Virus record (IMG/VR): IMGVR_UViG_3300027692_000003
Direction: 5' to 3' (one strand)
DNA from: a virus
Taxonomy: Duplodnaviria; Heunggongvirae; Uroviricota; Caudoviricetes
Length of the DNA: 64,000 nt
The translations under genes and the position numbers were made by a program. Below, piece after piece: positions 1,639-37,510 of this stretch (position 1 is its first letter; every line of letters starts with the position of its first letter). The notes beneath the pieces were generated by a model, which saw nothing but the letters and a program-made list of their open reading frames with translations, had not been told where the DNA came from and searched no databases.

Positions 1639-1703
1639 CTACCAGGGTTGCCGGTTCTGTGTTCACATCGAACGAAGCACCATCGTTGCTGGTAGAAGAC
1701 CTT

Positions 1704-3077
1704 TCAGACCGCGACTCCGACCCGGCTTAGCCTGCCCAGATAACGAGTGGCCCGGGTCGCGAGGCACATATCCCCGATCAGCGCATACGGCAGCGTGTCC
1801 GGTGCGCTCGTGGTGGGATACACGTCCACAGGCATGCAGTCGCGCACCCAGGGGCGGATGATGTTGTTCCGGTCCCGGGATACCAGGTAGATGTTCTCCA
1901 GGCCGCTGGCGAGCGGGTACATCCCGGTGTTGGTGCCGTAGTACTGGATCGGCAGGGTCGCCGGGACCGTCGCGCCGTTCTGCGGGACCAGGGCCGCGCC
2001 GGTGTCGATGATCGACGTGGTGGTGTAGGGGGTGACCCCGTCGGACTGCAGCGCGAACGCCGCGTCGACATACCCCAGGAACGTCTCACCGCCGGATGCG
2101 GTACCGCGGTACACCTTGTAGGTGATCGCGGCCTGGGAGTCCTGGCCGGTCGGTGCCGAGAACGACAGGGTGATCGTGCTCGTTGCCGTCCCGGACCCGG
2201 ATTCCTGCGACACTTCCGCGCAGGGCAGGATCTCACCCTGACGGGCGATGACCGGGGAGATCTTGTAGTAGTACGTCGTCGACGCCGCGATGGAACCGCC
2301 GGTGGTCGCGGTCGTGGTCGTGACCGCGCCCATGGCATAGTTCCGGCTGGACAGGAAGCTCGTCTTGACCAGGGGAATGTCGCGGTAGGACGGGACGAGG
2401 AGACCAGCCTCGATCTCCACCTTGTCGTTGAACCGCTGCTGGTTCAGGAGCAGCTGCGCCACCTTGGAATGCGCGGTGTTCGACGCGACGATCATCCACG
2501 AGTCGTCGAACACGCTCATGGCGGCGTTCGACTCCACCATGTCGATCAGCTCATCGAAATGCGCGAGGGTCAGGGAGTTGCCGCCCTTGTCGATGGCGTT
2601 CTGGTACGCGCCGGAGTACTGGCTGATCTGGGTGTCGAACCCGTCGAACTGCGGGTGGGCGCCGTTGAGGGTGGATGCGGCGTTACCCCAGCAGATCGCG
2701 GTTTCCGCGTCCCAGTAGTAGCCCCGGATGGAGCCCTCGATTTCCGTCTGGCGCAGGTCCCCGATGACCTGCTGGGTGACTTCCTGCGCGAACCCGGTCA
2801 CGGCACCCACGACCTGCAGGTGAGCCATGTTGAACGAGTTCTGCACGAACGTCGAGTTGGTGACGGGCTGCGCGCCGCCGTCCTGGACGAAGCCGCCGTT
2901 GGCGACCTGGGTCCGCTGGTTGAAGTAGTACGTGTTCGATCCCCACCGCTGCGCCGGGATGGCGCGTACCAGGGGCGCGTAGCGGCGCTGGTACTCCAGG
3001 AGGATGGGGTCGATGATCTTGGGGATAAGGGCGGACGCGCCTGCGGCGGTCAGTGCTTCCCTGAGTTCGGAACTCAC
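1704..3077 (-). CDS. Major capsid protein with inserted Ig/FnIII-like domain
   Basis: 457 aa, directly downstream of protease/scaffold. N-terminus ALIPKIIDPILLEYQRRYAPL... is capsid-like. Internal beta-rich insert (TYYYKISPV...TITLSFSAP...YKVYRGTASGGETFLG...IIDTG). Confidence 0.85.
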   Translation of the reverse strand: MSSELREALTAAGASALIPKIIDPILLEYQRRYAPLVRAIPAQRWGSNTYYFNQRTQVANGGFVQDGGAQPVTNSTFVQNSFNMAHLQVVGAVTGFAQEVTQQVIGDLRQTEIEGSIRGYYWDAETAICWGNAASTLNGAHPQFDGFDTQISQYSGAYQNAIDKGGNSLTLAHFDELIDMVESNAAMSVFDDSWMIVASNTAHSKVAQLLLNQQRFNDKVEIEAGLLVPSYRDIPLVKTSFLSSRNYAMGAVTTTTATTGGSIAASTTYYYKISPVIARQGEILPCAEVSQESGSGTATSTITLSFSAPTGQDSQAAITYKVYRGTASGGETFLGYVDAAFALQSDGVTPYTTTSIIDTGAALVPQNGATVPATLPIQYYGTNTGMYPLASGLENIYLVSRDRNNIIRPWVRDCMPVDVYPTTSAPDTLPYALIGDMCLATRATRYLGRLSRVGVAV

Positions 3078-3109
3078 GGCGGTTTTCCTCTCCGGGCATG
3101 AGAAAAGCC

Positions 3110-3143
3110 CCGGCGCGGTAGTGCGCAGGGGCTAGACCATTGC
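3110..3143 (-). terminator. Intrinsic terminator-like hairpin just upstream of the major capsid gene
   Basis: Minus strand agcccctgcgc-actacc-gcgccggggct followed by tttctc. Confidence 0.55.
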
Positions 3144-3296
3144 TGCCGGATCGGCACCAGGCAGAGCTCATGCCTGCTGGCGGTCAGGAGTTACACAGAT
3201 CGGTAAAAGCGGGGGTGCTGGTGGTGGTTTCCCCGGTGCCCGGCCGTGACAGTGCCAGGCACCGGCACCGGGGAACGCCTCCGGCCGGGGCCGGGG

Positions 3297-5417
3297 TCAG
3301 GCAGCCGGGCGGGACTTGTCCCGGAAGACATGGCCGAGCATCACGGTCCCGGCATGCTGGGTCCACTCGCTCTTGGTCATCTCGTGCGGTGCCTTGTCCG
3401 GGAAGGTGGCCGGCATCCCGTGCGCGTTCAGGCCCTCCTCCGGAGGGGTCTTCGCGGTGTGCTCGCTCACCGCGCCGCCCGCGGCCAGGCCCTTGCGGGC
3501 ACCGAGGCCGCCCGGCTGCTGGGTGAGCCGCTGGACTTCCTCGGTGACGCGCTCGCTGACGAGCCGGCCGATCCGCTCCGCCTCGGTTTCCGTGACCGCC
3601 GCCGCGGCGGCTGGTGCCGGGTCGGCTGCGGGGGCGGGGGCGGGCGCCGCCGCGGGCGCGGACTCCTGCGCCGGGGCCACGGGCGCCGGCCCGCGGGCTG
3701 CGGCGAGGAGCTGCGCGAACTGGTCACTGGTCAGCGTCACAGCTGCTGGTGCCGCTGTCTCCGTGGTGGCCGGGGCTGGGTCGGTGGTTGGGGCAGCGGT
3801 CTGCCCGGCCGCCTCACTGGTGGGCTCGCTCACAGCGGGCTCCTCTCCTTCGGGGGTGGCGGCGGCCGGATCGGGCGCCGGGGTATCGGTGGACTCTGCC
3901 GGGGGATCCGGCTCCGGGCCCTCGTCCGGGGCGGTCTCCGCCGCGCCGGCTGGCCCGGTCCCGTCCGGGCCTGCCGGTACCGGTGCAGGCTGCCCGGCCG
4001 GGGGTTCCGCCGGGGGTTCCGCCGGGGGCAGGCCGATCCCGGCCCGGAACTGGTTCAGGGTCCAGTCGCCGGACCGTTCACGGAGCTCACGGAACGTCGC
4101 CAGGTTCGCCGCGTCCTCCGCCGGCTCAGCGGGTGCGTCACCGTTGGGGTCGGAGTTCGGTCCGACGCCGGGCACGTCGACGTCACCGTCCATGTCGGGG
4201 TCGAGGGCGGCCAGTGCCTTGCAGGCGGCGTCCGCGGCGGCGCGGAGGATGACGTCCAGGTCGGCGGGGTCCATGCAGTACGACGACAGGTCCATGGTGA
4301 CCGGTCCGTTCGACGCACGGACACACCACGAGCCCGCGGTGGACGGGTTCCCGCCCATCCACTCGGTGACCGCCTCGGAGACCTGCCAGGCAGGGGCGAT
4401 CGTCCAGCCCTCAGCGGCGACGGTGACACCGAAGCCCTTGAGGGCCTTGATGATGCGGCCCTTGACCCGCTTCAGCTGCGCCGGGGTGTACGCCTTGGCG
4501 TTGTCACCCTGATTGATGAAGGACCACGCCGCTTTCGCTAGAACTTTCGAAGACACGTCGTAGCGCTGCTTCTTGTCCGCCTGATAGCCAGGGTCGGCCC
4601 AGACGTGGCCGGCACCGGACAGGCCAGAGTCCCGCTTGCCCATCGGCACCGTCGCCGAGGCCTCGGCCAGGCCGTTGCGGAGCACCGGGACAGGCTCGGC
4701 TGCGAGCAGGTCCCGGTAGGCAGCGGCGAGCCCGGCGAGAGCCGCTGCCGCTTTCGGATCGGCCGCGGCGATCCCTTCCGCCAGTCCGGTGGCGAGGGCC
4801 GCCCCGGGCCCGGGGGTTTCCTCGGTGAATGTCACCAGTGCCTCCGGGGCTGTCTCGGTGATGAGCACGCGGTCATCGGTTTCCGCCGTCTCGGTGGCGC
4901 CGCCGGCTGTGTCCTTCGCCCAGGCGAACGCGTCGATCCTGGCGCCCGGAACCCCCGGTGACTTCGTGTAGTCAATTCCGTACAGATTGAGATCGTCGGC
5001 GACCTCGACCGGCGACCCATCCGGTCCTGTCTCGCGGCGGACCTTCCCCACCCACGCACCCCGGATCGAGGTGTTCCGCAGGTAGGCGGGCCGGCCGTCG
5101 CTGGTGTCGACCAGGGCGGCGATCGTCCGGCCATGCTCGGTGTCGGCGATGTCCGCGGTGTACCGGGCTGACCCGTCCTCGGCGAGGGTCATCGAGGTGA
5201 CCCGCCCCGTGATCCTGGTCGAGTCATCCTCGGCCGCGTGATGAGTCAGGTTCGTCAGCGGCTCCTGCTGGCCGGTGAGATACATGCCCTCGCCGCTGAT
5301 CTGCTCCTGTGCCCGTGCGACCATCCGGGCGATCGCCTCACGGGTGTACAGGCGCCGGTTCAGGGAGACGCCGGGGACCAGCGCCACACCGCTGACGGTT
5401 GCTATGCGCCGTGCCAC
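3297..5417 (-). CDS. Prohead protease/scaffold fusion protein
   Basis: 706 aa. N-terminal protease-like region (GVSLNRRLY..., TSIRGAW...IDYTKSPGV), central DUF6582-like WADPGYQADKKQRY...AAWSFINQ domain, long Ala/Pro/Glu scaffold-like C-terminus; precedes capsid. Confidence 0.8.
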   Translation of the reverse strand: MARRIATVSGVALVPGVSLNRRLYTREAIARMVARAQEQISGEGMYLTGQQEPLTNLTHHAAEDDSTRITGRVTSMTLAEDGSARYTADIADTEHGRTIAALVDTSDGRPAYLRNTSIRGAWVGKVRRETGPDGSPVEVADDLNLYGIDYTKSPGVPGARIDAFAWAKDTAGGATETAETDDRVLITETAPEALVTFTEETPGPGAALATGLAEGIAAADPKAAAALAGLAAAYRDLLAAEPVPVLRNGLAEASATVPMGKRDSGLSGAGHVWADPGYQADKKQRYDVSSKVLAKAAWSFINQGDNAKAYTPAQLKRVKGRIIKALKGFGVTVAAEGWTIAPAWQVSEAVTEWMGGNPSTAGSWCVRASNGPVTMDLSSYCMDPADLDVILRAAADAACKALAALDPDMDGDVDVPGVGPNSDPNGDAPAEPAEDAANLATFRELRERSGDWTLNQFRAGIGLPPAEPPAEPPAGQPAPVPAGPDGTGPAGAAETAPDEGPEPDPPAESTDTPAPDPAAATPEGEEPAVSEPTSEAAGQTAAPTTDPAPATTETAAPAAVTLTSDQFAQLLAAARGPAPVAPAQESAPAAAPAPAPAADPAPAAAAAVTETEAERIGRLVSERVTEEVQRLTQQPGGLGARKGLAAGGAVSEHTAKTPPEEGLNAHGMPATFPDKAPHEMTKSEWTQHAGTVMLGHVFRDKSRPAA

Positions 5418-6596: not shown

Positions 6597-8090
6597 CTAT
6601 CCCCCCAGCCCGAGGAACGATGCGGGGATCCGGCTGCGGGATACGAGACGGCACCTGCATCCGGGATGGCACGGGTACGCCGGGACCGTACTGGGGCTGT
6701 AGGGGCCGCCGTCCGCGTTGTCCTGGCATGCGGCACACGCGGACGCGCCCGCTTCCCAGGTGACCTCGATCAGGGCGCCGGTGACAGCAGCGGCCACCCG
6801 CCGCCACAGGGACAGTGCACCGCCGCCGATCGCGGCCCAGAGCCCGTTCCCGCCGAGGACGGCAACAGCCCGGACCTCGGTACCGCCCGCCGTCTGGACT
6901 GCGGCGCCCAGCATGTCCTCATAGGTGCCGTCGTCGGCGGCCTGCTTCGCGAGGACCCGGGCCAGGTCCACGGCCGCACCGGTGATGATGACGTCGAGGA
7001 GGTCCCTGGCCCGCCCCGGCAGCCCAGGATCGGCGGCGAGCCGGTCATACGCTGCCTGATAGGCGGCATCGGTGCCGAACCCGGTGTGGCCGTCCTGGGC
7101 CGCTGCCATCGCGAGTGCCCCGGCTTCGCCTTCCGCGGCGGCAGCCAGCAGTGCCGTCTCTATGGCGGCGAGGAGGGTGTCATGGCCGCGGGACTGGTAG
7201 ATGCCCCGCAGCCAGCCCAGCGCCACCGCGGTGGCCTCGGTCCTCCAGAACTCCTGGTCCGCGCTCTCGCGGGGGAGGTAGATGGCGGCCCGGTAGCGGG
7301 AGATCAGCTTCCGGGTGTTCAGGGAGTGGATGCAGGTACGCCATGCGTCCAGGATCACTGCGAGATGCGCGGCGAGGAGGGTGCCGGCGCGGGCCTGGAT
7401 CGCGGCCTGCTGGCCTTCGAGGAGGCCGATCGCCAGGATGGTCTCCAGGACAGCCGGGTCATCCCAGTGGCTGACGGCGAGGGCGGCGGCGGCGGTGCAC
7501 CCGGCGCGTACCCGGGGAGTCATCGGGCCGCCGGACAGTGCCCACCCTGCCGCGTATGCCTCGCGGGCCGCGGAAACCACGGCGGCATCGGGCTGTTCGC
7601 TGGCCGCGAACGGGTAGTCGGTGCGGTCGCTTCCGTGCATCACCGAGACCGCGGGGAAAGTCACCGGGATGGTGGCGAGGCGGCCGACCGGGTCCTCGCC
7701 GTCCGGGCCGAGGTAGGTGAGGGTCAGGTGCGGGCAGTACCCGTAGACGGACGGGGAGGTGATCCCGCGGGCACCCAGCCGGTCCGCGGCGTCGCGGTGC
7801 AGGTCGTCGAGGGCGGGTGAGCTGGCCAGGGCGACGATGACGTCCTGGTCCCCGCCGGTGAAGCGGGCGTGGCCGGAGATGACGGCGGTTACCGGATCGC
7901 GGCGGGCGAGGATCTCAGCGACCGCCTTCAGCGCCTGCGGGTCCACGCCGGCGGCGTCGCCGGTGTAGATGACGGTGCAGTGCAGGTCGCTGGCGTGGAG
8001 GCCGCCCGGGATGGCGAGGTCGGCGGCGAGGTCGGGTGGCGGGTAGAGGGCGATCATGCAGGACCCGGAGTAGTCAGGCTGGTCCGCCAT
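6597..8090 (-). CDS. 2H phosphoesterase (Acb1/2'-5' RNA ligase-like) fused to Mu-gpF-like minor head protein
   Basis: Start MADQPDYSG at 8090. Two HxT motifs (LHCTVIY, PHLTLTY) in the first ~160 aa; C-terminal CAACQDN...PAYPCHPGCRC typical of head-morphogenesis proteins. Confidence 0.8.
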   Translation of the reverse strand: MADQPDYSGSCMIALYPPPDLAADLAIPGGLHASDLHCTVIYTGDAAGVDPQALKAVAEILARRDPVTAVISGHARFTGGDQDVIVALASSPALDDLHRDAADRLGARGITSPSVYGYCPHLTLTYLGPDGEDPVGRLATIPVTFPAVSVMHGSDRTDYPFAASEQPDAAVVSAAREAYAAGWALSGGPMTPRVRAGCTAAAALAVSHWDDPAVLETILAIGLLEGQQAAIQARAGTLLAAHLAVILDAWRTCIHSLNTRKLISRYRAAIYLPRESADQEFWRTEATAVALGWLRGIYQSRGHDTLLAAIETALLAAAAEGEAGALAMAAAQDGHTGFGTDAAYQAAYDRLAADPGLPGRARDLLDVIITGAAVDLARVLAKQAADDGTYEDMLGAAVQTAGGTEVRAVAVLGGNGLWAAIGGGALSLWRRVAAAVTGALIEVTWEAGASACAACQDNADGGPYSPSTVPAYPCHPGCRCRLVSRSRIPASFLGLGG

Positions 8091-8153
8091 GCCAGCCTCC
8101 CCGCGCTCAGGAACCGGGGGACTGCCAGCTGCTCTGAAGCACACACAAGACAG

Positions 8154-8205
8154 GTGGCTTATTGTCGTGATTCTCTTGACAATAAGCCACGCGGGTAACT
8201 AGGCT
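8154..8205 (+). promoter_or_regulatory. Sigma70-type promoter overlapped by a 13-bp perfect inverted repeat
   Basis: gtggcttattgtc (8154-8166) / gacaataagccac (8178-8190); TTGACA at 8176-8181, 18-nt spacer, TAGGCT at 8200-8205. Confidence 0.7.
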
Positions 8206-8241
8206 GACCAGCACAGGAACCGCACCCGCAGGAGGCAGAAG

Positions 8242-8445
8242 ATGAGCGTCATCACCGAGGACCGGACCGCCGGCAGCCGCACGATCAGCGAGGACGACGC
8301 CCGCGCCGCCGCCGCGATCCTCGACCAGATTTACAGCGGTCACGCCGAGCAGGCCGACCAGCTCGCCGAGCAGGCCGGCCTCGGGGACCTGTCCGAGACC
8401 CAGCTGGAGCACCTGTGCGGCTTCTTCGGCGTGCCCCTGATCTAG
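8242..8445 (+). CDS. Small acidic hypothetical protein (counter-oriented cargo gene)
   Basis: 67 aa, RBS aggagg, own promoter. Confidence 0.7.
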   Translation: MSVITEDRTAGSRTISEDDARAAAAILDQIYSGHAEQADQLAEQAGLGDLSETQLEHLCGFFGVPLI

Positions 8446-28689: not shown

Positions 28690-29000
28690 CCACCGAGACC
28701 ACCACCGAGACGCGCGAGGACCGCGAATCCGAGGCCCGCACCACCCTGGCGCGGCACGGCGTCCACCTGGACTCGCACCGGCCGTTCTCCCTCGAGGAAA
28801 TCGAGAAGCTGGCCGAGGTCGCCGCGTTCTTCCGCGACAACGGCGCCGATGGCCACCCCGCCCGCGTCCGCTTCGCCGACTTCTACACCGCCACCTACGG
28901 CGATGTAGGCAACGGGGCGCGGGCGCTCACTGTCGAGACCGAGGAGCCGATGGAGATACGCCCCCTCGGTGACCGCAGGATCATCATCAAGCGGGCATGA
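28686..29000 (+). CDS. Hypothetical protein
   Basis: ATG 28686 overlapping the previous stop; 104 aa. Confidence 0.65.
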   Translation: MTTETTTETREDRESEARTTLARHGVHLDSHRPFSLEEIEKLAEVAAFFRDNGADGHPARVRFADFYTATYGDVGNGARALTVETEEPMEIRPLGDRRIIIKRA

Positions 29001-29017
29001 CCCCCCCCCCCGCGCAC

Positions 29018-29057
29018 ACAGCGGCACCCCGCTTCCTATGCGGGGTGCCGCTGTTTT
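29018..29057 (+). terminator. Intrinsic terminator
   Basis: cagcggcaccccgc-ttcctat-gcggggtgccgctg followed by tttt. Confidence 0.85.
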
Positions 29058-29108
29058 CCGGGGCGTCACCGATTCTGCCTCGCCACGTCCGGCCTGGTCA
29101 CCGCGCGG

Positions 29109-29426
29109 TCAGTTGAACTGGGCGCAGGCTGACTGCGGATAGGTCCAGACGTGGAGGAGGTGCCCGGCTTCAGACCAGCCGGTGACCGGGTGCCGTCCGC
29201 AGGATGCCGTGGCGAGGTGAGTCGTCGCGGCGGTGTCACGGGTGTCACGGCCTGCTTCGGTGCCTGTGCTGGCGCATGCACGGCAGTACCAGGCCCACGG
29301 GTCGTCCCGGCAGGCTTCCGCTTCTTCGGCGGCGAGCTTCTCCCAGCCGACAGGGCGCTCGGCGAGGTCACGGAGGATCTTCCCGGCAAGCTCTTGCAGG
29401 TGCGCCATGTGAGCGTCCTGGTCCAT
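29109..29426 (-). CDS. Hypothetical protein (CxxC/His)
   Basis: 105 aa, WYCRAC...HL...C. Confidence 0.55.
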   Translation of the reverse strand: MDQDAHMAHLQELAGKILRDLAERPVGWEKLAAEEAEACRDDPWAWYCRACASTGTEAGRDTRDTAATTHLATASCGRHPVTGWSEAGHLLHVWTYPQSACAQFN

Positions 29427-29572
29427 GGCGGCCAGGATAACGGAGGGCCGGCCCTGGTGACCCCTAGTTCACCTGGACCGGCCCTCGGCCCTAACCCGAG
29501 GCGCCGAACATACCACGCCCCGTGACGAGGGCGTCAGTACGGGCGGGATACCAGCGGGCTAGGCTCGCTGCC

Positions 29573-29950
29573 ATGACCGGGACTGAGACGAACCTGACAG
29601 CCGAGCGTGTCGAGAACCTGTTCGGAGAGTGCCTCGCTCACGAGGGCGTGGCCGTTGAGGGAATCATGTGCACGACCCGGTTCAGCCCGGATGCCATCGG
29701 GGCGCACCGCGCCGAAATCACCGCGATGCTCGCCGAGCTGCCCGATGAGTTCCGCAGGTCAGGCGGGGGCGGCTGGACGTTCCTGAACGCCTGCCTTGAC
29801 CGGCACGGTGTCCAGTGGACTGGCCTGCACAGGGTGATGGAGCAGCTGTTCATGCTCGGTCTCGCAGCGGGGCTCGTGTCTGAGCTGATGCCCCGCGACA
29901 TGTGGAGGGTCCTGCCGGGCGGGATGCCGTACTACGTGGTGGACCTGTAA
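29573..29950 (+). CDS. Conserved phage hypothetical protein
   Basis: GGGWTFLNACLDRHGVQWTG.H..MEQLF.LG...G...LPGGMPYY motif, familiar from diverse phages. Confidence 0.75.
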   Translation: MTGTETNLTAERVENLFGECLAHEGVAVEGIMCTTRFSPDAIGAHRAEITAMLAELPDEFRRSGGGGWTFLNACLDRHGVQWTGLHRVMEQLFMLGLAAGLVSELMPRDMWRVLPGGMPYYVVDL

Positions 29951-30136
29951 GACCCGCCGGAGGGTGCCGGGTTCCGCGCGGGTAGGCTGCTCGCGCCCCC
30001 GTGCTGGATTGCGTGCGCCTTGCTGACACCTTGGTGCTCCCCGGCACGGGGGTCTTCTCCGCCCATCGGGGTTGCGTTTGCTGGTAGTTCCGGGCATAAT
30101 GGTGGTGTCAGCAAGGCATCACGCAAGGAGCACCCG

Positions 30137-30892
30137 ATGGAGCAGATCCACCCGGACATCCCGGTCAGCAAGGCATGGAAGACCAGCCGCACCATCTTCG
30201 TCACCGCCGGCTACAACTCGGTCCTGTCCGGCGAGATGTACGATCTCGGCGCGAAGTGGGACCGTGACGAGCACGCGTTCCGCACCGGCCCCGGCAAGCT
30301 CGACACAGTCATCCCGCTGATCCTGGCCGACCTCGGCCGGGCCGCGAAGACAGCGGACATCAAGTCCGCAGGGCTGTGGGTGAAAATCCCGTTCGAGGCA
30401 CATGCCATACGCGACCAGGCCAAGAATCTCGGTGCCCGCTGGGACAAGGACCGCAAGGAATGGGCGATGCCCGGCGAGGAGTCCCTCGCCCAGGTCCGCG
30501 AGCTCGTCTCGGCTCACGGCCAGGCGGAGAAAGACCGGAAGACGGCCGCCAGGGCGAAGAAGGCAGCCGAGGCAGCGGTCACCGACGAGGAGATCATCAC
30601 CCGGTCAGGACGCACCCTGGTCAGTGACGTGCGGGTCGGCCTGGAACGCCACGAGTCCCAGTGGCGGATGAAGCGCGCCGAGGCCGAGAAGTACGCACCG
30701 GAACGCGGCGAGATCCAGCGCACCCGCGACGGGAAATACTGGCTGATCCTCTCGGCCGCTAAAGCGGACTTCTGGAATGAGGACACCTGCGCCGACCTCG
30801 CCCCCCACCTGCAGCCAGGCTGGCACTACAGCTTCGCCGGGGTCGAGGTCACGCCCACCGCCGAGGAAATCGCGAAGGACGCGGCACGGTGA
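30137..30892 (+). CDS. DUF5710-like domain protein
   Basis: Two GA(K/R)WD repeats, including IPFEAHAIRDQAKNLGARWDKDRKEW; RBS aaggag. Confidence 0.7.
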   Translation: MEQIHPDIPVSKAWKTSRTIFVTAGYNSVLSGEMYDLGAKWDRDEHAFRTGPGKLDTVIPLILADLGRAAKTADIKSAGLWVKIPFEAHAIRDQAKNLGARWDKDRKEWAMPGEESLAQVRELVSAHGQAEKDRKTAARAKKAAEAAVTDEEIITRSGRTLVSDVRVGLERHESQWRMKRAEAEKYAPERGEIQRTRDGKYWLILSAAKADFWNEDTCADLAPHLQPGWHYSFAGVEVTPTAEEIAKDAAR

Positions 30893-31302
30893 TGGCCCGG
30901 ACCCGGGACGCCCGGGCGGCCGACGCGGCGGCTCTGGCAGGCAGCCTGAGCGCCGCGGCGATCGCCCGGCGGCTCGGCGTCCACGAGCGGACCGTCCGCC
31001 GCTGGCTCGGCGCCTACGGGATCCCGCTGCGGCGCGGCCCGAGACCGTCCGCGCCGGGCCGCCCACGCCGCCCGATCGGCGACGCTGACGCGGCGGCTCT
31101 GGCATCGCTGTGGCAGTCCCTGCCGCCCCCGCCCCGCGGCGGAGGGGGCCACGACCTGCGCGGTACCGGCGGCCAGGAACTGGTGCGGCTCCTCACCGGG
31201 CACCGCCGCGAAGGTGTCACCGCCGCGGCGCTGGGCGCCGTGCTCGGCGTGTCCGGGCAGTACATCCGGCGCATCACCGCAGGAGGCGGCCGTGACCAGT
31301 GA
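30889..31302 (+). CDS. Tandem HTH DNA-binding protein
   Basis: SAAAIARRLGVHERTVRRWL and VTAAALGAVLGVSGQYIRRI. Confidence 0.75.
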   Translation: MMARTRDARAADAAALAGSLSAAAIARRLGVHERTVRRWLGAYGIPLRRGPRPSAPGRPRRPIGDADAAALASLWQSLPPPPRGGGGHDLRGTGGQELVRLLTGHRREGVTAAALGAVLGVSGQYIRRITAGGGRDQ

Positions 31303-32683
31303 CCGGTACGCCGTCGTGATCCCCGAGGAGCCCGCCGGGGCCGTGCGGTCCTGGCGCAAGCTGGTCAGTGCCGTCGACGGCGGCCGCGGCGGCGCCTACG
31401 CGCTCCGGGGCGGCTGGCTGGACCCCGACAAGGCCTACGAGCTCCCCGCCAGCGCCCTCGTGGTTGCCTGCGACACGTTCCCCGAGGTCCGAGAGGTCGT
31501 CCTCTACAAGGCCGCCGGCGGGACACTGGAGACGGTGAAGCAGTGGACGCTGCGGACCCCGCTCGGGAAACGCGTCACCGATTTCACGGCACGCAGGCTC
31601 GCTCCGGGCGCCTCCGGGCACCGGGCGGTCCCGCTGGAGGACCTCGCGAACCGGTACGACGGCCGCTGCCGCACCTGCCGGCAGCCCGTCCCCGCCCTCA
31701 CCGGACGGGCGTGGACCGCGCGGGACGGCAGCCGCACGGTCGCGCACCGGGAAGGGGAATGCCCGCCGCCTCCGCCTCCGCCGCCCCGGGTGGAACCGAA
31801 CCTGTACGCGGACGCGTGCCTGTGGTGCGGCGGCTGGGTCGCCGCGGAGACCGGGGCGGCGATCCTGGGCGAGCAGGCCGAGCCGGGCCGCCGGGGCCTG
31901 TACCGGGCCGTCCACCAGGTGTGCCCGCCCGATCCGCTGCCGGGCCCGGTGAACTCGCGGGAGGCATGGTGCTCGGAATGCTCCGGGATCGTCGCCGGGC
32001 AGGCTGGCTGCTGGGTCCTCCAGCCAGGCGGCGGCAGGCTGCTGCGCCACCACCCGGCCTGCCCCGGCACCGCCCCCGCTGAGCCGCGGTGGATCGTCGG
32101 CGCTGAAGGCCGTACAGGCGACGCGGTGACCGCCCGTGCCGACCTGCGCCGCGGCGGCCCGGCCATCCCCGAGACCGTTCCGGGGTACCGGATCCTGGAC
32201 GATCAGGGCTTGTACATCCAGTTCTACGGGGTCATCACCGCCGTCATACGCGGCAGGTACGGCAAGTGGGAGACCCAGGTCCGTGCCGCCACCCTGGACG
32301 AGGCGGCACCGCTGGTCGCCGCCGAAGCGGAGCAGGCCCTGATTGCCGCCCCGCACGATCCCGGGTTCCGGGGTGCGTGGCATGCGGAGATCATCGGCCC
32401 GCACCGGCCGTGGCTGGCCCGCCTCACCGGCTATGACCCGGACTACGGGCTGCGCCGCGTCTTCCTCCGCCCGAAGGAAGACTGGCTGGACGCGAACCGG
32501 AAAGGGACCCGCGGCGTGCAGTGCTGGTGGACCCTCGAGCTGAACGAGGTCTACGAGGCGTGCTGGCGGCAGACGTGGAACTCCGAACTCCGCGAGTTCC
32601 TCCGGGTCACCCCCGAAGGGGACGTCACCACCATCACCCGGGAGGAGGCCGAAGCATGGCTGGCAATGCCGCACGTACGCTGA
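31292..32683 (+). CDS. Multidomain protein with three CxxC..H..C zinc-ribbon repeats
   Basis: NRYDGRCRTC, NLYADACLWC and NSREAWCSEC repeats; C-terminal RPWLARLTG..P.YG..R.FL...DANRKGTRG domain; overlaps the ibrA-like start. Confidence 0.7.
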   Translation: MTSDRYAVVIPEEPAGAVRSWRKLVSAVDGGRGGAYALRGGWLDPDKAYELPASALVVACDTFPEVREVVLYKAAGGTLETVKQWTLRTPLGKRVTDFTARRLAPGASGHRAVPLEDLANRYDGRCRTCRQPVPALTGRAWTARDGSRTVAHREGECPPPPPPPPRVEPNLYADACLWCGGWVAAETGAAILGEQAEPGRRGLYRAVHQVCPPDPLPGPVNSREAWCSECSGIVAGQAGCWVLQPGGGRLLRHHPACPGTAPAEPRWIVGAEGRTGDAVTARADLRRGGPAIPETVPGYRILDDQGLYIQFYGVITAVIRGRYGKWETQVRAATLDEAAPLVAAEAEQALIAAPHDPGFRGAWHAEIIGPHRPWLARLTGYDPDYGLRRVFLRPKEDWLDANRKGTRGVQCWWTLELNEVYEACWRQTWNSELREFLRVTPEGDVTTITREEAEAWLAMPHVR

Positions 32684-33918
32684 GCCGCACCAAGCGGGGC
32701 CTCGGCATCGACGTCCTCACCGCCGCCCGGCAGCGGATCCGCCGGGTCTTCGACGATTTCCCGGATGTCTATTGCTCTTTCAGCGGAGGAAAGGACAGCG
32801 GCGTCTGCCTGGAACTCGCCGCGGTGGAGGCACGGGCGCGGGGCCGGCGGCTCGGCTGCCTCATCGTGGACCTCGAGGCCCAGTACCAGCACACCATCGA
32901 CTACATCCACCTCATGCTCGAGCGGCACGCCGATGTCCTGGACGTGTACTGGGTGTGCCTGCCGATCTCCCTCCGCAACGCCGTGTCCCAGTTCCAGCCG
33001 AAATGGCAGTGCTGGGACCCGGACGCCCGCGACTGGTGGGTGCGGGAATACCCCGTGCATCCCGGGGTCATCACCGACCCGGGGTTCTTCCCGTTCTTCC
33101 GGCGGGGAATGGAGTTCGAGGAGCTCGTCCCCGAGTTCGGCTGGTGGCTGTCGGAGCAGCACGGCGGGAAGCTGACGGCATGCCTGGTCGGGATCCGGTC
33201 CGATGAGTCACTCAACCGGTACCGGACCATCGCGTCCCGGGTCAAGCGCGTCCACGAGGGACTGCGGTGGACGACCTGGACCGGGCATGCCGCCTACAAC
33301 GCCTACCCGGTCTATGACTGGCGGACCGAGGACATCTGGCGGTACTACGGCAAGACCGGCACCCCCTACAACCAGGTGTATGACCTGATGCACCGTGCCG
33401 GGGTATCCATCCACCAGGCCCGCCTGTGCCAGCCGTACGGCGATGACCAGCGCAAGGGCCTGTGGCTCTACCACACCCTCGAACCCCGCACCTGGTCCAG
33501 GGTCGTCGCCCGGGTCCAGGGCGCCAACTTCGGTGCCCGGTACGCCCGCGAGACCGGGAACATCATGGGCCGCATCCAGATCACGAAACCGGACAGCATC
33601 ACCTGGGAGCAGTACGCCATGGGCCTCCTGGACTCCATGCCGGAGGACACCGCGGAAGCGTTCCGGTGCAAGATCGCCTGGTTCATCCGCTGGTATGAGA
33701 ACAACCGCGGGTACGGCGGCGGCATCATCCCCGACGACGGCCCCCTCGGTAAAGGGAGCCCGTCATGGCGGCGGATCTGCAAGGTCATCCTCAGTTTCGA
33801 TTATTACTGCAAAGCGCTCACCTTCAGTGCGCCCGCGCATCCCGCCGCGTTCGAGGCGTACAAGAAGCGGATGGCGGCCCGGCGCCAGGAGTGGGGTTAC
33901 AGTGACCGGGGCCTGTGA
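32656..33918 (+). CDS. PAPS-reductase-like/DUF3440 protein (IbrA/YbdN family)
   Basis: YCSFSGGKDS PP-loop, VDLEAQY, LVGIRSDESLNRY, YPVYDWRTEDIW, RLCQPYGDDQRKGL, SWRRICK.IL..DY.CK.L.F. Confidence 0.9.
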   Translation: MAGNAARTLSRTKRGLGIDVLTAARQRIRRVFDDFPDVYCSFSGGKDSGVCLELAAVEARARGRRLGCLIVDLEAQYQHTIDYIHLMLERHADVLDVYWVCLPISLRNAVSQFQPKWQCWDPDARDWWVREYPVHPGVITDPGFFPFFRRGMEFEELVPEFGWWLSEQHGGKLTACLVGIRSDESLNRYRTIASRVKRVHEGLRWTTWTGHAAYNAYPVYDWRTEDIWRYYGKTGTPYNQVYDLMHRAGVSIHQARLCQPYGDDQRKGLWLYHTLEPRTWSRVVARVQGANFGARYARETGNIMGRIQITKPDSITWEQYAMGLLDSMPEDTAEAFRCKIAWFIRWYENNRGYGGGIIPDDGPLGKGSPSWRRICKVILSFDYYCKALTFSAPAHPAAFEAYKKRMAARRQEWGYSDRGL

Positions 33919-33928
33919 CATCGTGCGC

Positions 33929-34315
33929 ATGGCGAATACCGGCCCCGGGTTCTATCCGCTGCTCGGCCCGTACCTGGCCTCCCGGCAGGTCGCCGCGGAC
34001 CTCGGCGAGCAGCCGTGGGACGACCCCGGCAAGACCTGGTGGGTGATGGCCCCCGGAGGCGCCGTGGCGGGGTTCGCCGCCGCGGCGGACCTCGGGACGC
34101 ACCTGGCGTGGTGCTCGGCGTGGACCGCCCCCGCCTGGCGCGGGAAAGGGGTCTGGTCCGCGCTCGCCGCCGGACGGGACACCGCGGCGGCCGGGCGTGA
34201 GGTGCGGGTCCTGTGCCGGCCCGTGCTCGAGGCGGCATACCTGCGGATGGGGTTCACGGTGACCGGCCGCACCGCCGGCTACGCCCGGATGCGGCGGCAG
34301 TCCCTGGCCGGCTAG
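33929..34315 (+). CDS. GNAT-fold acetyltransferase-like protein
   Basis: SAWTAPAWRGKGVWSAL acetyl-CoA motif; AAYLRMGF. Confidence 0.7.
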   Translation: MANTGPGFYPLLGPYLASRQVAADLGEQPWDDPGKTWWVMAPGGAVAGFAAAADLGTHLAWCSAWTAPAWRGKGVWSALAAGRDTAAAGREVRVLCRPVLEAAYLRMGFTVTGRTAGYARMRRQSLAG

Positions 34316-34316
34316 C

Positions 34317-34330
34317 TTTCCTTAAGGAAA
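34317..34330. promoter_or_regulatory. 14-bp palindrome upstream of the second Phd-like gene (candidate operator)
   Basis: tttccttaaggaaa, an AT-rich perfect palindrome in a GC-rich context. Confidence 0.6.
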
Positions 34331-34348
34331 TAGCTTAAGGTTCAGGGT

Positions 34349-34525
34349 ATGCATGAACGTGAGACCGGAGTCGAGGAAGCCCGGAAGATCCTCGGGGACC
34401 TGGCCGACGACGCCGCGGACGGCACCGTCACCTGGCTGACCCGCCACCGGCGCCGCATCGCCGCGATCGTACCCGTCGACCTCGCCGAGCTCGCCATCCG
34501 CGAGACACTGGAAGAGGGCCTGTGA
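34349..34525 (+). CDS. Phd/YefM-like antitoxin (58 aa; not in ORF track)
   Basis: Manual translation MHERETGVEEARKILGDLADDAADGTVTWLTRHRRRIAAIVPVDLAELAIRETLEEGL. Confidence 0.75.
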   Translation: MHERETGVEEARKILGDLADDAADGTVTWLTRHRRRIAAIVPVDLAELAIRETLEEGL

Positions 34526-34911
34526 AGCTGCTCTCCCTCACCAGCGCAGACCCCCGGTTCTACCCGCTCCTGGGCCGGTTCCTCGCGAACCGGGACGTCG
34601 TCGCCTACCTCGGCGGCCACCTGTGGGACGACCCCGCCAAGACCTGGACCATCGCCATCAGCACGGAGGGGGTCCGCGGGTTCATCGCCACCGTCCCATC
34701 CCGCGGCGCGGTCAAAGCCCAGTCCTGCTACGTCCTCGACGGCGAGGACACCCTCACCGGCGACCTGATCCGCGCCGTCGTCCAGGCACACGCCCCTTCA
34801 CCGGTCACCGCGGTGGTCCGCGCCGGCCACGCCGGGCCCTGGCACGAGGAAGGTTTCGTGACCGTCGCCGACAAAGGCCGTTTCCTGCACCTGGCCAGGA
34901 AAGGCTCCTGA
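34522..34911 (+). CDS. Degenerate GNAT-like paralogue of 33929-34315
   Basis: Shares FYPLLG..LA.R.V.A.LG...WDDP.KTW; lacks RGKG; GTGA overlap with the Phd-like gene. Confidence 0.7.
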   Translation: MKLLSLTSADPRFYPLLGRFLANRDVVAYLGGHLWDDPAKTWTIAISTEGVRGFIATVPSRGAVKAQSCYVLDGEDTLTGDLIRAVVQAHAPSPVTAVVRAGHAGPWHEEGFVTVADKGRFLHLARKGS

Positions 34912-34913
34912 CC

Positions 34914-35600
34914 ATGGATCTCCTGTCATCCGCCCTCGTCGACTCCGCGGCGGCCCTGTTCGAGCAGCTGGACGGCATCCCCGAAGCCGAGCGGATCGAG
35001 GTCATCAACGAGATCAGGCTCGCGTTGCGGGAGCATTCCCCGATGAAAGCTGAGCCGGTCGACTGCGTCCTGTGGGTGCCCTCGGCCCGTGTCGCCGGGA
35101 ACGAGTACAACCCGAACGTAGTCGCTCCCCCCGAGATGCGGCTCCTCACCAGGTCTATCGAAGCGGACGGCTTCACGCAGCCGATCGTGGCGTGGCCCGT
35201 GGGAGACGGCTATGAGGTGATCGACGGGTTCCATCGTCACCGGGTCGGCAAGGAGAGCAAGCCGGTCCGCGCACGGGTCCGGGGGCACCTCCCGCTGGCG
35301 GTGATCAACGGGGACCGGGCGGCCCTGGAGGACCGGCAGGCGGCGACAATCCGGCACAACCGGGCGCGCGGGGTGCACACGGTGGACGGCATGAGCGAGA
35401 TCGTCACCGACCTGCACAGACGAGGGAAAGGGGACGAGTGGATCGCCGCCGAGCTCGGCATGGACCCTGACGAGGTCCTGCGGCTGCGGCAGACCGCCGG
35501 TATCGCCGAGCTGTTCTCAGGCCAGGAATTCTCCGAGGCCTGGGAAGCGGACACCTGGGCCGGGCAGGGCGCCGCCGAGCAGCCCGGCAGTGACCTGTGA
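34914..35600 (+). CDS. ParB/Srx-like protein (IbrB/YbdM family)
   Basis: NEYNPNVVAPPEMRLL..SI..DGFTQPIV...EVIDGFHR...ATIRHNRARG.H...IAAELGMDPDEVLRL.Q..G.AELF. Confidence 0.9.
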   Translation: MDLLSSALVDSAAALFEQLDGIPEAERIEVINEIRLALREHSPMKAEPVDCVLWVPSARVAGNEYNPNVVAPPEMRLLTRSIEADGFTQPIVAWPVGDGYEVIDGFHRHRVGKESKPVRARVRGHLPLAVINGDRAALEDRQAATIRHNRARGVHTVDGMSEIVTDLHRRGKGDEWIAAELGMDPDEVLRLRQTAGIAELFSGQEFSEAWEADTWAGQGAAEQPGSDL

Positions 35601-35792
35601 ACCGCGGCAGGGCGATCCGGGCGCTGGCCCGGGCCGTGCTCACCGCGGAGGCGGCAGCGTGAGACCCACCCACGGCGGCGCCGCCAGCAGCGGCCCGCAG
35701 GGGGATCATCACGGCCGGCCTCGCGGCGGAACGCGGTGACCCACGAGACCCAGCTGCTCTACTCCCCGGCCCGTGGCGGGGCGCCGCTACGT

Positions 35793-36191
35793 TCAGCACT
35801 TCACGGTCACGCTGTTGACGTACTTCGCGCCCTGGCTCGTGATGGTGACCTGCATGATGTTGTCCTCGGTGCGGCCCGGCTGTACCGGTGACGCGAGGGT
35901 CCCGATATTGATCCCGGAGTAGGCGCCGGACGGGTCGGAGGCGTCGACCGTGCACTGCGGATCACCCGCCGTCTTCCCGGTGTTCGTGACGGTGAAGTAG
36001 ACGTTCAGGTCCGCAGGATTCACCACGGTGTAGGTAGCGACCGCGGCCTTGTACTGCGCCGCCGACTGGGCCTGGTCCTTCGCGCCGAGATGGACCGCCA
36101 GGAGTATGGCCCCGACGACTGCCACGACGACGACGAGCGCGCATCCTTGCGCCGCCCCTGACGGTTTCCCCTTATTCTGCGTACCTGTCAT
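35793..36191 (-). CDS. Membrane-anchored secreted beta-sandwich protein
   Basis: N-terminal TM (CALVVVVAVVGAILLAV), FTVTNTG..AG...C.V, C-terminal C. Confidence 0.7.
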   Translation of the reverse strand: MTGTQNKGKPSGAAQGCALVVVVAVVGAILLAVHLGAKDQAQSAAQYKAAVATYTVVNPADLNVYFTVTNTGKTAGDPQCTVDASDPSGAYSGINIGTLASPVQPGRTEDNIMQVTITSQGAKYVNSVTVKC

Positions 36192-36594
36192 TTCCAGCCC
36201 CTTCATCCCGGTTCCCTTTGCGGGGCATTCTTGCGCGGAGAAGGGGATATACCGCCACCCGCGACCGTATCGAGACGCGAATGTGTCGGCAGGGATAGGA
36301 AAACGTGGCCCCCGGGACAGGGGGTTGCTGCTCCCGGACACATCGCGTTATCCGGCCTGCTGCGCCTGACGCGCGAGGGAGAATGATGGCCGGCACCCGC
36401 TGCCGGACGGCCGGTAACGCCGCTACCAGCACGTCCTGCGCATCGTCACCGAGCTGCACGTCGAGCGGCCCCTCCTCCTCGGCGAGTCCTGGCTCTGCGT
36501 CCGGTTCCTCGCCGTACCTCGGGTCATCCAGTCCGGGGACTGCCATCAGGAGGATCAGGGCACACAGGACCAGGATGCCGAACAGGACGTACAC
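36172..36594 (-). CDS. Possible small membrane protein (boundaries uncertain)
   Basis: N-terminal hydrophobic YVLFGILVLCALILLMAVPG, then an acidic segment. Confidence 0.35.
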   Translation of the reverse strand: MYVLFGILVLCALILLMAVPGLDDPRYGEEPDAEPGLAEEEGPLDVQLGDDAQDVLVAALPAVRQRVPAIILPRASGAAGRITRCVREQQPPVPGATFSYPCRHIRVSIRSRVAVYPLLRARMPRKGNRDEGAGNDRYAE

Positions 36595-36755
36595 GAATGC
36601 CGATCAGGAGAGGAACTCAGCGGGAGGAGCGCTGCGGCCAGGAAAGGCGAATGCGCTGGTCACGATCCTATCAGCGGCGCGGCGTCATCCCGGCGAGAGG
36701 GTCAGCCGGCGACTAGGCTCCTGTCCGACCCTGAACGGACCAGGAAGGAACCGCG

Positions 36756-37106
36756 ATGCCCGCCGAAGTGACCGTTACCAAGACCGAGCTGCTCAAAGTC
36801 CTCGAAGCGAACCGGGCCACGCATCGCGAGACCTTCATCGCTGCACAGTCCGGCTTCCGCGCCAGGGTGATCGAGGAGCTTGACCGCCGGCTAGCGGAGG
36901 CTCGCGCCGGTCATCACGTCGACCTGATGATCCGCCTCCCTGAGCCGGAAGACCACACCGAAGACTACGACCGCGAGATCCGGATGCTGCAGATGCACAC
37001 CGGGGACACTGTAACTGTCGGGGCGCACCTGTTCGACCAGATCGTCATGGACCGCTGGGGCTGGTCGACCTCGTTCAACACGACCAATTCGGCCTACCTG
37101 CCGTGA
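36756..37106 (+). CDS. Conserved phage hypothetical protein
   Basis: ELLKVLEANRATH...LPEPEDHTEDYDREIRML.MH...FDQIVMDRWGW; RBS aggaagg. Confidence 0.8.
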   Translation: MPAEVTVTKTELLKVLEANRATHRETFIAAQSGFRARVIEELDRRLAEARAGHHVDLMIRLPEPEDHTEDYDREIRMLQMHTGDTVTVGAHLFDQIVMDRWGWSTSFNTTNSAYLP

Positions 37107-37510
37107 GGGAGTGACCCGTCCGCGGCGGCCTGGTGCCGGTAGCGCCTGCGTCCTTTCATGGTGCTGGCTACGGTCGACCGCTTCCACCGGTGGACGCCGT
37201 GCTCAGTATCGTCGGGGGCGGGCCAGCGGCCGCGGCTGATGTCGGAGCGGATTGTGGATCCGGACAGGCCGGTCTCGGCGGCGATGCGTGCGACGTCCAG
37301 GAGCTCGTCAGGGTCGCCGTCGGGGAGCGGGGTCCGGCCGGCGATCGTCGCGACCGCGGCGGCGACCTCGGCGGCGTCGTACTCCTTGTAGCGGCCGCGT
37401 TTGCCGGCGGCTGCCGGCCAGGCCGGGTGGGGTACCCACTGGGTCCGGATCGTGCCGGGTGTGCGGTCGTATTTCTGGGCGATCTCGGGGATGATGAGCC
37501 GCTGTATCAT
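37094..37510 (-). CDS. Tandem AlpA/excisionase-like HTH protein
   Basis: IPEIAQKYDRTPGTIRTQW and LLDVARIAAETGLSGSTIRSDISRGRWPAPD; RBS ggagg. Confidence 0.75.
   Translation of the reverse strand: MIQRLIIPEIAQKYDRTPGTIRTQWVPHPAWPAAAGKRGRYKEYDAAEVAAAVATIAGRTPLPDGDPDELLDVARIAAETGLSGSTIRSDISRGRWPAPDDTEHGVHRWKRSTVASTMKGRRRYRHQAAADGSLPHGR

Follow-up and report, generated by a model that had tools for sequence, protein, structure and literature searches.

We analysed a 64,000-nucleotide stretch of viral DNA (IMG/VR record IMGVR_UViG_3300027692_000003; the full stretch, about 70% G+C, is hereafter called the window), in which an operon encodes relatives of IbrA and IbrB. These two proteins (YbdN/YbdM) occur as a pair in prophages. 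They are among the commonest phage and prophage gene pairs without a known mechanism, and they are often mislabelled as a sulfur-metabolism gene or a partition protein. The operon of the window is an enlarged version of the widespread IbrA/IbrB module plus a dedicated GNAT-fold partner. The element itself is phage-like, with a Streptomyces-type actinobacterial host: capsid (SU10-type), portal and Acb1-like 2H phosphoesterase genes are present in the window, and the closest relatives of its IbrA are found in Streptomyces (65–71% identity).

Organisation of the operon

Seven co-directional genes of the + strand, at 30889–35600, encode a helix-turn-helix (HTH) protein, a Zn-ribbon/X protein, IbrA, a first GNAT (G1), a Phd-like protein, a second GNAT (G2) and IbrB. 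The features are as follows.

30889–31302, + strand: HTH_23-type DNA-binding protein, 137 aa, which opens the operon (Pfam HTH_23, 1.6e-8)
31292–32683, + strand: Zn-ribbon/X protein, 463 aa, GTG start, with three CxxC...H...C units (no Pfam family)
32357–32674, + strand: X domain of the preceding protein, about 105 aa, beta-rich with a terminal helix (phrog_26647, 1e-4)
32656–33918, + strand: IbrA, 420 aa, of the PP-loop phosphoadenosine phosphosulfate (PAPS)-reductase superfamily, with DUF3440 (PF01507, PF11922, phrog_2302)
33923–34315, + strand: G1, 130 aa, GNAT fold, motif A intact (Acetyltransf_1, 6e-5; AlphaFold model)
34318–34329, unstranded: perfect 12-bp palindrome TTCCTTAAGGAA, a candidate operator that would overlap an internal promoter
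34349–34525, + strand: short Phd/YefM-like protein, 58 aa, with the N-terminal DNA-binding/dimerisation domain only (PF02604, E = 0.026)
34522–34911, + strand: G2, 129 aa, GNAT-family paralogue without motif A (family profile, 6e-33; no Pfam match)
34914–35600, + strand: IbrB, 228 aa, a ParB/Srx N-domain followed by an HTH-like segment (ParB_N, 7e-4; phrog_2159, 1.9e-64)

Adjacent genes either share 11, 28 or 4 nt or are separated by gaps of 4 and 2 nt, the stop of the HTH gene overlapping the start of the Zn-ribbon gene. The sole real spacer in the operon is an AT-rich segment of 33 nt (34316–34348) in front of the Phd-like gene, and the gene downstream of IbrB lies on the opposite strand. 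The initial annotation, made from the sequence alone, had described a unit of six tightly coupled genes at 31292–35600. All six are present on the + strand at these coordinates and the gene content holds, but the start has to be moved, as the operon begins one gene earlier, with the HTH gene at 30889. A gene of this kind occupies the equivalent position in loci L087, L088, L014 and L001. A scan of 29000–37500 for promoters and terminators returned nothing exceeding chance. Comparison with two metagenomic relatives indicated purifying selection on all genes of the operon, with ratios of nonsynonymous to synonymous substitution rates (dN/dS) of 0.09–0.32 for the main genes, 0.4–0.5 for the HTH gene and 0.5–0.6 for the Phd-like gene.

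IbrA and IbrB form the conserved core

The identification of IbrA and IbrB in the initial annotation is borne out by profile searches. IbrA matches PAPS_reduct (PF01507; 6e-12, 46.3 bits against a cut-off of 22.5), DUF3440 (PF11922; 1.5e-26, 93.7 bits against 25) and phrog_2302 (1.5e-80). In 87 homologues from many phyla, the motifs SGGKDS (43–48), D72/E74, R181..E184 S185..R188 and D221 W222..D226.W228 are at least 93% conserved. In addition, Cys258 (RLCQPYG) is the sole cysteine column that is invariant across 87 of 87 homologues, unlike the conserved cysteine cluster found in DndC. This motif set corresponds to the signature of a substrate-adenylating ATP pyrophosphatase, a role that IbrA would share in view of what is established for the PP-loop/PAPS-reductase superfamily, and the cysteine could carry sulfur or form a covalent intermediate. 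Because the identity of IbrA across phyla is very high (40–70%), a universal substrate of the nucleic acid type would fit.

On the other hand, scores against the models of known family members were far under the cut-offs. For CysH we obtained 20.1 bits with TIGR00434 (cut-off 165) and 18.7 bits with NF002537 (cut-off 154), and the CysD models likewise scored far too low. For DndC we obtained 22.2 bits with TIGR03183 (cut-off 290.4) and 25.6 bits with the PADLOC model, the similarity being local only. Judged by these profiles, IbrA is neither CysH nor DndC. A sequence search of solved structures retrieved no relative of IbrA, nor of the Zn-ribbon protein.

These scores bear on the label that many GenBank phage records give to IbrA, 'phosphoadenosine phosphosulfate reductase'. 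Together with the Pfam PAPS_reduct match, this label would suit a function in auxiliary sulfur metabolism, in which IbrA would reduce PAPS and so raise the assimilation of sulfate by the infected host. We consider such a function extremely improbable, given the CysH and CysD results (e.g. 20 bits versus 165), the ATP-type PP-loop SGGKDS and the DUF3440 extension. Moreover, IbrA always comes with a ParB-like DNA-binding protein and often with a GNAT, never with cys genes.

IbrB matches phrog_2159 (1.9e-64), and its best Pfam match, ParB_N (7e-4, 20.1 bits), is under the cut-off of 26.3. It contains NEYNPN (NxYNPN), a box I-like stretch, DGFHR at 104–108 (DGxHR), IRHNRARG at 146–153 (RHNxARG) and, towards the C-terminus, an HTH-like segment; of 85 homologues, at least 90% share D104-G-F-H-R108. 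A homologue with 65% identity carries the NCBI name 'IbrB-like domain-containing protein'. These motifs point to a nucleotide-binding, DNA-binding ParB/Srx protein. A ParABS partition system was considered and rejected: the operon holds no ParA, IbrB has only 228 aa, and its score with the parB_part model is low (TIGR00180, 16.8 bits against 58.45).

Both IbrA and IbrB are present in 85 of the 87 sampled loci. The E. coli proteins, IbrA/IbrB of the ECOR-9 island and YbdN/YbdM of K-12, belong to the same two core families and are likewise encoded by an overlapping gene pair. IbrA of the window is 47% identical to that of Escherichia phage PhiR5_2. Whereas loci of the E. coli type consist of plain IbrA-IbrB, the window adds two GNATs and the Zn-ribbon/X, HTH and Phd-like proteins.

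A GNAT family dedicated to IbrA and IbrB

The census of IbrAB neighbourhoods took in 80 genome loci with IbrA relatives and six annotated phage or plasmid loci, and their open reading frames (ORFs) were scored with our own hidden Markov models (HMMs). The HMM of the GNAT family (G) was built with the IbrA and IbrB regions masked. Of the 87 loci, drawn from genomes, plasmids and phages, 41 carry a GNAT either between the IbrA and IbrB genes or next to them; these loci come from many phyla and include two archaea. The arrangements are the following.

36 of 87 loci: IbrA-G-IbrB
5 of 87 loci: variants with an adjacent G, including the A-G-G-B order of the window
35 of 87 loci: IbrA-IbrB
1 of 87 loci (L050): IbrA-IbrB with a G-family match about 2.8 kb downstream on the opposite strand
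10 of 87 loci: IbrB-x-IbrA, x being an unrelated helical domain

Loci with G were found in Actinomycetota, Bacillota, Desulfovibrionaceae, Alpha-, Beta- and Gammaproteobacteria, Bacteroidota and Methanobrevibacter. On the IbrA tree, the presence of G is clustered (about 10 changes, versus 29 in shuffles): it accompanies 8 of 8 actinobacterial members, 22 of 24 in the Bacillota/Methanobrevibacter clade and 5 of 5 in Desulfovibrionaceae.

The association also holds in the reverse direction. Searched through five whole genomes that carry such a locus, the family profile matches once in each, at the IbrAB locus. A profile search of 1.84 billion representatives yielded 1189 clusters of the GNAT family (E<=1e-3), and in an evenly spaced sample of seven from the 150 best representatives, all seven genes stand directly downstream of IbrA; the six whose contigs are long enough all stand directly upstream of IbrB. 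The sample of 400 further Actinomycetota genomes gave two GNAT matches, both weak and partial, and is uninformative as a reverse test. Hence, this GNAT family associates exclusively with IbrAB. The initial annotation had made the conservation of GNAT genes with ibrAB homologues the check on its reading; they are conserved, in a family restricted to IbrAB.

Furthermore, at least six proteins (L014, P0039, P0040, P0107, P0109 and L105) combine an N-terminal G domain with IbrB in a single chain. The fusion in L014 is an ORF of 351 aa, and four others, of 357–365 aa, are among the best IbrB matches. An apparent triple fusion in L105 was discarded as an open-frame artefact of high-GC DNA, the real fusion being GNAT::IbrB only.

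Among viral contigs of IMG/VR, the G form is in the minority (7 of 80 loci, one of them L101). A tblastn search of GenBank phages with G1 and the GNAT of L081 gave no match, which carries little weight because these proteins are short and divergent.

The three-gene IbrA-GNAT-IbrB operons that the census found in Bacillota, Desulfovibrionaceae, Actinomycetota, Pseudomonadota and Methanobrevibacter contain the same triad, with the same dedicated GNAT family. Compared with them, the window has two diverged GNATs (with and without motif A), a Phd-like gene and an operator-like palindrome between the two, a Zn-ribbon/X gene upstream and a viral context.

An alternative third component is the helical domain of the IbrB-x-IbrA loci, of about 130 aa and unrelated to the GNAT that it replaces; it was found in 10 of 87 genome and 26 of 80 IMG/VR loci (for example at L005:3631-4029, L022:1390-1812 and L029:5568-5984). 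The domain, with the motif W..S.EHNLTN...NRIAWLGQA, is encoded as a separate protein in part of these loci, whereas elsewhere (L027, L030, L033, L042, L054 and L065) it forms a C-terminal extension of IbrB.

Two forms of the GNAT and their predicted pairing

The AlphaFold model of G1 has a predicted local distance difference test (pLDDT) value of 95 and a GNAT fold. Foldseek returned 151 PDB matches at E<=1e-3, all of them GNATs among the matches listed, with no specific nearest relative among the many GNATs. G2 was assigned to the family by HMM, its fold being taken as GNAT by homology; it is 47% identical to G1 across the N-terminal 53 aa. Conservation within the family is strongest in an N-terminal motif, FYxx(L/M)GxFxAxRxV...G..I.DD..K.W, which corresponds to FYPLLGPYLASRQV in G1 (nt 33950–33991) and to nt 34558–34599 in G2.

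In contrast, the loop that would hold the pyrophosphate of acetyl-coenzyme A (acetyl-CoA) varies. The general form of motif A is R/Q-x-x-G-x-G/A, and in G1 it reads RGKGVW (nt 34139–34156). At the beta4-alpha3 junction, a motif A of the type R-x-x-G-(V/L/I)-aromatic is kept in 22 of 50 locus-derived members, among them G1, two proteobacterial copies and all fused copies. From their sequences, about half of the family, G2 included, appear to be without the acetyl-CoA loop. Where the loop is missing, the GNAT fold would therefore contribute structure or ligand binding to the complex.

G1 forms one clade with its L087 and L088 orthologues and G2 another, both within a set of actinobacterial sequences whose branching is unresolved; the two are therefore old paralogues. 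The initial annotation had called the second GNAT a paralogue of the first; the paralogy stands, but the two are old and distinct rather than a recent tandem duplicate. G2 is 91% identical to its L087 orthologue, and dN/dS is 0.14–0.32 for G1 and 0.24–0.28 for G2.

A complex of three chains (G1, the Phd-like protein and G2) was predicted, with G2 scored as the partner. The G1–G2 score was 0.78, compared with 0.02 for the best of three controls. In a calibration that used pairs of single chains, the mark of 0.78 was met by 51 of 78 solved complexes and by 2 of 108 mismatched pairs. Contacts agreed between runs at 97% or more, and the pLDDT of the partner was at least 90. The predicted interface joins residues 5–34 of G1 to residues 8–37 of G2, which is the conserved N-terminal motif, and replacement of G1 abolishes the score. 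G1 and G2 are thus predicted to pair via the N-terminal motif of the family. For a contact between the Phd-like protein and G2, the control with G1 replaced scored 0.02, which gives no support to such a contact and is not evidence against it.

The Zn-ribbon/X protein

The protein encoded upstream of IbrA consists of an N-terminal beta domain, three zinc ribbons with CxxC...H...C units at residues 126, 176 and 227 (nt 31667–32062), a middle domain and the C-terminal X domain. Its AlphaFold model (pLDDT 88.6) has beta-rich domains, and its dN/dS is 0.18–0.22. Full-length homologues lie directly upstream of IbrA in L003, L007, L008, L010, L087, L088 and L096. An HMM built for the X domain places it immediately upstream of IbrA in 14 of 87 loci, in 28 of 80 IMG/VR loci and around 4 of the 5 sampled G genes with a long context; some loci encode X as a small protein on its own, and in others it forms the end of a larger one. 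Foldseek comparison of the 463-aa model with the PDB gave only meaningless matches (TM about 0.08), and the X region retrieved, among AlphaFold database clusters, uncharacterised small proteins plus one weak 'single-stranded DNA-binding protein' row. Since these structure matches are uninformative, the fold of X is left unnamed.

The Phd-like gene resembles a regulator with its own operator

The Phd-like protein scores 14.7 bits with PF02604 (E=0.026), under the cut-off of 29.8, and its L087 orthologue 15.5 bits (E=0.015). Its Atlas feature score to 54-aa Phd/YefM clusters is 0.91. Orthologues are 83% identical in L087, 57–59% in L088, where an N-terminal extension is present, and 63% in L101. 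Phd-like domains recur in actinobacterial IbrAB loci. Upstream of IbrA, L095 encodes a 164-aa protein with two Phd N-domains (L095:949-1443; PF02604 at 40.5 bits, above the cut-off), and L105 has a Phd-like domain inside a 439-aa zinc-finger protein (L105:1802-3121). In L088, an extra gene of 92 aa without a known family lies between G1 and the Phd-like gene (L088:4996-5274); the space between the two GNATs therefore behaves as a variable slot.

The palindrome TTCCTTAAGGAA, which lies in the spacer, is unique in the window, where 0.01 occurrences are expected by chance. It is exact in L087, and CCTTAAG is retained in L088. The Phd-like protein may act at this predicted operator as a repressor of an internal promoter for Phd-G2-IbrB. 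It looks like an operon regulator with its own operator and not like the antitoxin of a GNAT toxin.

This distinction matters for the proposal, made in the initial annotation next to DNA modification, that the operon is an abortive or defence module. In such a module, of the toxin–antitoxin kind or acting in host defence, IbrB would be a ParB-type nuclease or G2 a GNAT toxin, the Phd-like protein would be the antitoxin, and the prophage would use the set to keep other phages out. The Phd/YefM N-domain signature, in a gene that overlaps a GNAT-fold gene (G2) by 4 nt, recalls Phd/YefM systems and GNAT-toxin pairs such as TacAT and AtaRT; Phd-like domains recur, as described above, and nickases are known among ParB/Srx domains, which also form part of restriction and Dnd systems. 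However, G2 belongs to a family dedicated to IbrAB and is without the acetyl-CoA loop that GNAT toxins require. The Phd-like protein is the N-terminal DNA-binding half only, without the C-terminal toxin-binding half, and stands behind its own palindrome. Its neighbours are G1 and G2, with no Doc, YoeB or RelE-type toxin alongside. GNAT toxins pair with ribbon-helix-helix (RHH)/DUF1778 antitoxins, not with Phd, and no DUF1778 or RHH antitoxin was matched by Pfam in the operon. Furthermore, the Phd gene is absent from most IbrAB loci, and in L095 and L105 the domain is found upstream of IbrA. PADLOC matches are limited to weak ones with DndC and BrxP, and there is no PADLOC model for the set. 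Finally, the module is common in phages (221 GenBank phage records, including Flavobacterium and Mycobacterium phages, and hundreds of IMG/VR contigs), and the window itself is phage-like. This half of the earlier proposal is therefore the weaker one, and we judge it very unlikely.

Distribution of the module

IbrAB were found in 421 IMG/VR stretches, and IbrB forms at least 8000 clusters. The same X-IbrA-G-Phd-like-G-IbrB layout is, by contrast, limited among the relatives to L087, L088 and the IMG/VR contig L101. In the latter (UViG_3300037827_001081), the two-G layout of the window type spans 1535–5196, with an IbrA of 71% identity and a Phd-like ORF of 63% identity.

The frequency of the module in phages could also reflect counter-defence. 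In such a case, the complex would inactivate host immunity, by acting on an immune nucleotide or cofactor or by acylating or adenylating a defence protein, and would leave the phage's own DNA unmarked. The operon lies within a block of small accessory genes that also holds the Acb1-like 2H phosphoesterase, and its modular, variable composition (GNAT, X, helical domain, Phd) is typical of conflict systems. On the other hand, the module is fixed in chromosomes without phage context, as for E. coli ybdNM, IbrA is far more conserved across phyla than the usual host-specific anti-defence proteins, and no known anti-defence family is matched apart from the unrelated Acb1-like neighbour 25 kb off. 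We therefore regard counter-defence as unlikely.

A possible DNA-directed enzyme complex

The reading that we favour, tentatively and at somewhat less than an even chance, is a DNA-directed enzyme complex that serves the phage. IbrB would be its nucleotide-gated DNA-binding platform, by virtue of its ParB/Srx nucleotide-binding motifs and HTH. A GNAT-fold dimer would dock on the N-terminus of IbrB; here, it would consist of G1, with its intact acyl-CoA loop, and the loop-less G2, joined by their N-terminal motifs. IbrA would activate, by adenylation, a group carried either by the bound nucleic acid or by a partner that sits on the DNA, and would then transfer or exchange a group, with the X domain of the zinc-ribbon protein as an accessory substrate- or DNA-binding subunit. 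The outcome would be a covalent mark on, or processing of, the element's own DNA that aids the phage, for instance through escape from restriction or silencing or through gene activation, while the Phd-like protein would repress the internal promoter at TTCCTTAAGGAA.

Known modification systems offer analogies for such a complex. PP-loop relatives of PAPS reductase, DndC and SspD, act in DNA phosphorothioation. ParB-like proteins partner DNA-modifying enzymes in the Dnd system (DndB with the PAPS-reductase-like DndC) and in the Dpd system (DpdB with DpdA), and by analogy these pairings support a DNA-related role of IbrAB. In DndB/DndC, as in SspD and the BREX type 4 protein BrxP, a gene of the ParB/Srx superfamily likewise adjoins a PAPS-reductase-like PP-loop ATP pyrophosphatase. 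The genes of the operon, however, include no DndA/IscS cysteine desulfurase, DndD/SspC, DndE/SspB or restriction partner, and we know of no GNAT component in Dnd or Ssp systems. In 7-deazaguanine modification by DpdA/DpdB, a ParB-like ATPase similarly helps a DNA-modifying enzyme, but the operon has no homologue of the TGT-family DpdA, of QueC or of DpdC, and IbrA comes from a different superfamily. With Mom of phage Mu the shared idea is a GNAT-fold protein in phage DNA modification. No sequence relation to Mom was detected for G1, which matches general GNAT models only. Mom acts alone, whereas the GNAT family of the window occurs only with IbrA and IbrB.

Several observations weigh against an enzyme complex of this kind. 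IbrA resembles DndC and BrxP only weakly and locally, and the operon is without a cysteine desulfurase, a sulfur carrier, an SMC-like ATPase or a cognate nuclease. Motif A is deleted or degenerate in 27 of 50 GNAT members; G2 is one of these, as are the sole GNATs encoded by the Streptomyces loci L003 and L007–L011. Among the 150 best representatives of the family, 85 keep the R/Q/K-x-x-G motif, and 43% are without motif A. A GNAT is missing altogether from about 40% of IbrAB loci. Because so many members are without the CoA loop and so many loci without a GNAT, acyl transfer would not be the core or universal chemistry. In addition, G1 and G2 are paralogues, so that the contact predicted between them may do no more than reflect the way in which single-G systems form homodimers. 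Our search found no paper that reports modification, DNA binding or enzyme activity for any member of the IbrAB module. The IbrAB genes of ECOR-9 reportedly activate the prophage eib genes; as far as the accessible part of that study goes, this is the sole published phenotype of IbrAB, and it is an effect on gene expression, not a demonstrated modification.

The eib phenotype leads to the idea of a gene-expression switch, which we hold possible but rather less than probable. Here, IbrB would be a ParB-family nucleotide switch of the VirB/KorB/Noc type that loads on DNA and activates or de-silences phage or prophage genes. IbrA would make, consume or transfer a nucleotide-type ligand or modify IbrB, and the GNAT dimer would sense acyl-CoA or acetylate IbrB or a nucleoid protein. 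The label 'co-activator of prophage gene expression IbrA/IbrB', found in GenBank/RAST-style annotation, goes back to the ECOR-9 work on eib activation, again within the part of it that was accessible. IbrB retains the ParB N-domain motifs and an HTH, a LysR repressor controls the ybdNM operon of E. coli, and HTH and Phd-like regulators flank the module. Moreover, a GNAT fused to a DNA-binding subunit suits regulatory modification, and loop-less GNATs suit a sensor or adaptor role. Against this, a simple DNA-binding switch needs no enzyme as conserved as IbrA, with its intact PP-loop and invariant cysteine. Neither a ParB-type C-terminal dimerisation domain nor a parS-like repeat was identified, and the activation seen in E. 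coli could itself follow from DNA modification.

Within the favoured reading of a DNA-directed complex, the more specific proposal that X-IbrA-GNAT-IbrB writes a novel covalent DNA mark, by ATP-dependent adenylation followed by thio- or acyl-transfer at sites chosen by the ParB-like protein, remains doubtful, with perhaps one chance in several. If true, it would represent a new class of epigenetic modification of phages and prophages, present in thousands of phages, plasmids and bacteria and in some archaea, and the mark would account for the activation of prophage genes by IbrAB. The dedicated and sometimes fused GNAT, the loop-plus and loop-minus forms that probably pair, and the association of X with IbrA would make up a defined multi-subunit complex that could be purified and assayed. 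The version in the window has every part, in a Streptomyces-type phage, which makes it a handy model for deciding between a modification system and a ParB-based gene switch.

Our literature full-text search found no paper on the mechanism of IbrAB nor on the IbrA-GNAT-IbrB triad. The exclusive, reverse-tested link of the GNAT family to IbrAB, the fusions, the split into loop-plus and loop-minus forms with their predicted pairing, the X domain and the recurring Phd-like regulator appear to be new here.

Neighbouring genes

Two genes of the + strand, at 29522–29950 and 30137–30892, lie just upstream of the HTH gene. One of them encodes a DUF5710 protein (1.3e-9), and a DUF5710 gene is likewise found upstream in L087, L009 and L011. 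The other encodes a protein of 142 aa that matches phrog_26039 (1.4e-26). The 2H phosphoesterase domain of the window (2_5_RNA_ligase2, 8e-11) is carried by a 533-aa ORF at 6597–8198 on the − strand; its match to Acb1 is weak (2e-4) and under the cut-off. In the Rhodovastum plasmid locus L001, the operon has the order HTH-IbrA-GNAT-small ORF-IbrB, and a divergent C2H2-type zinc-finger protein and a second, short protein of the PAPS-reductase family are encoded beside it (1705–2856 and 7508–8305).

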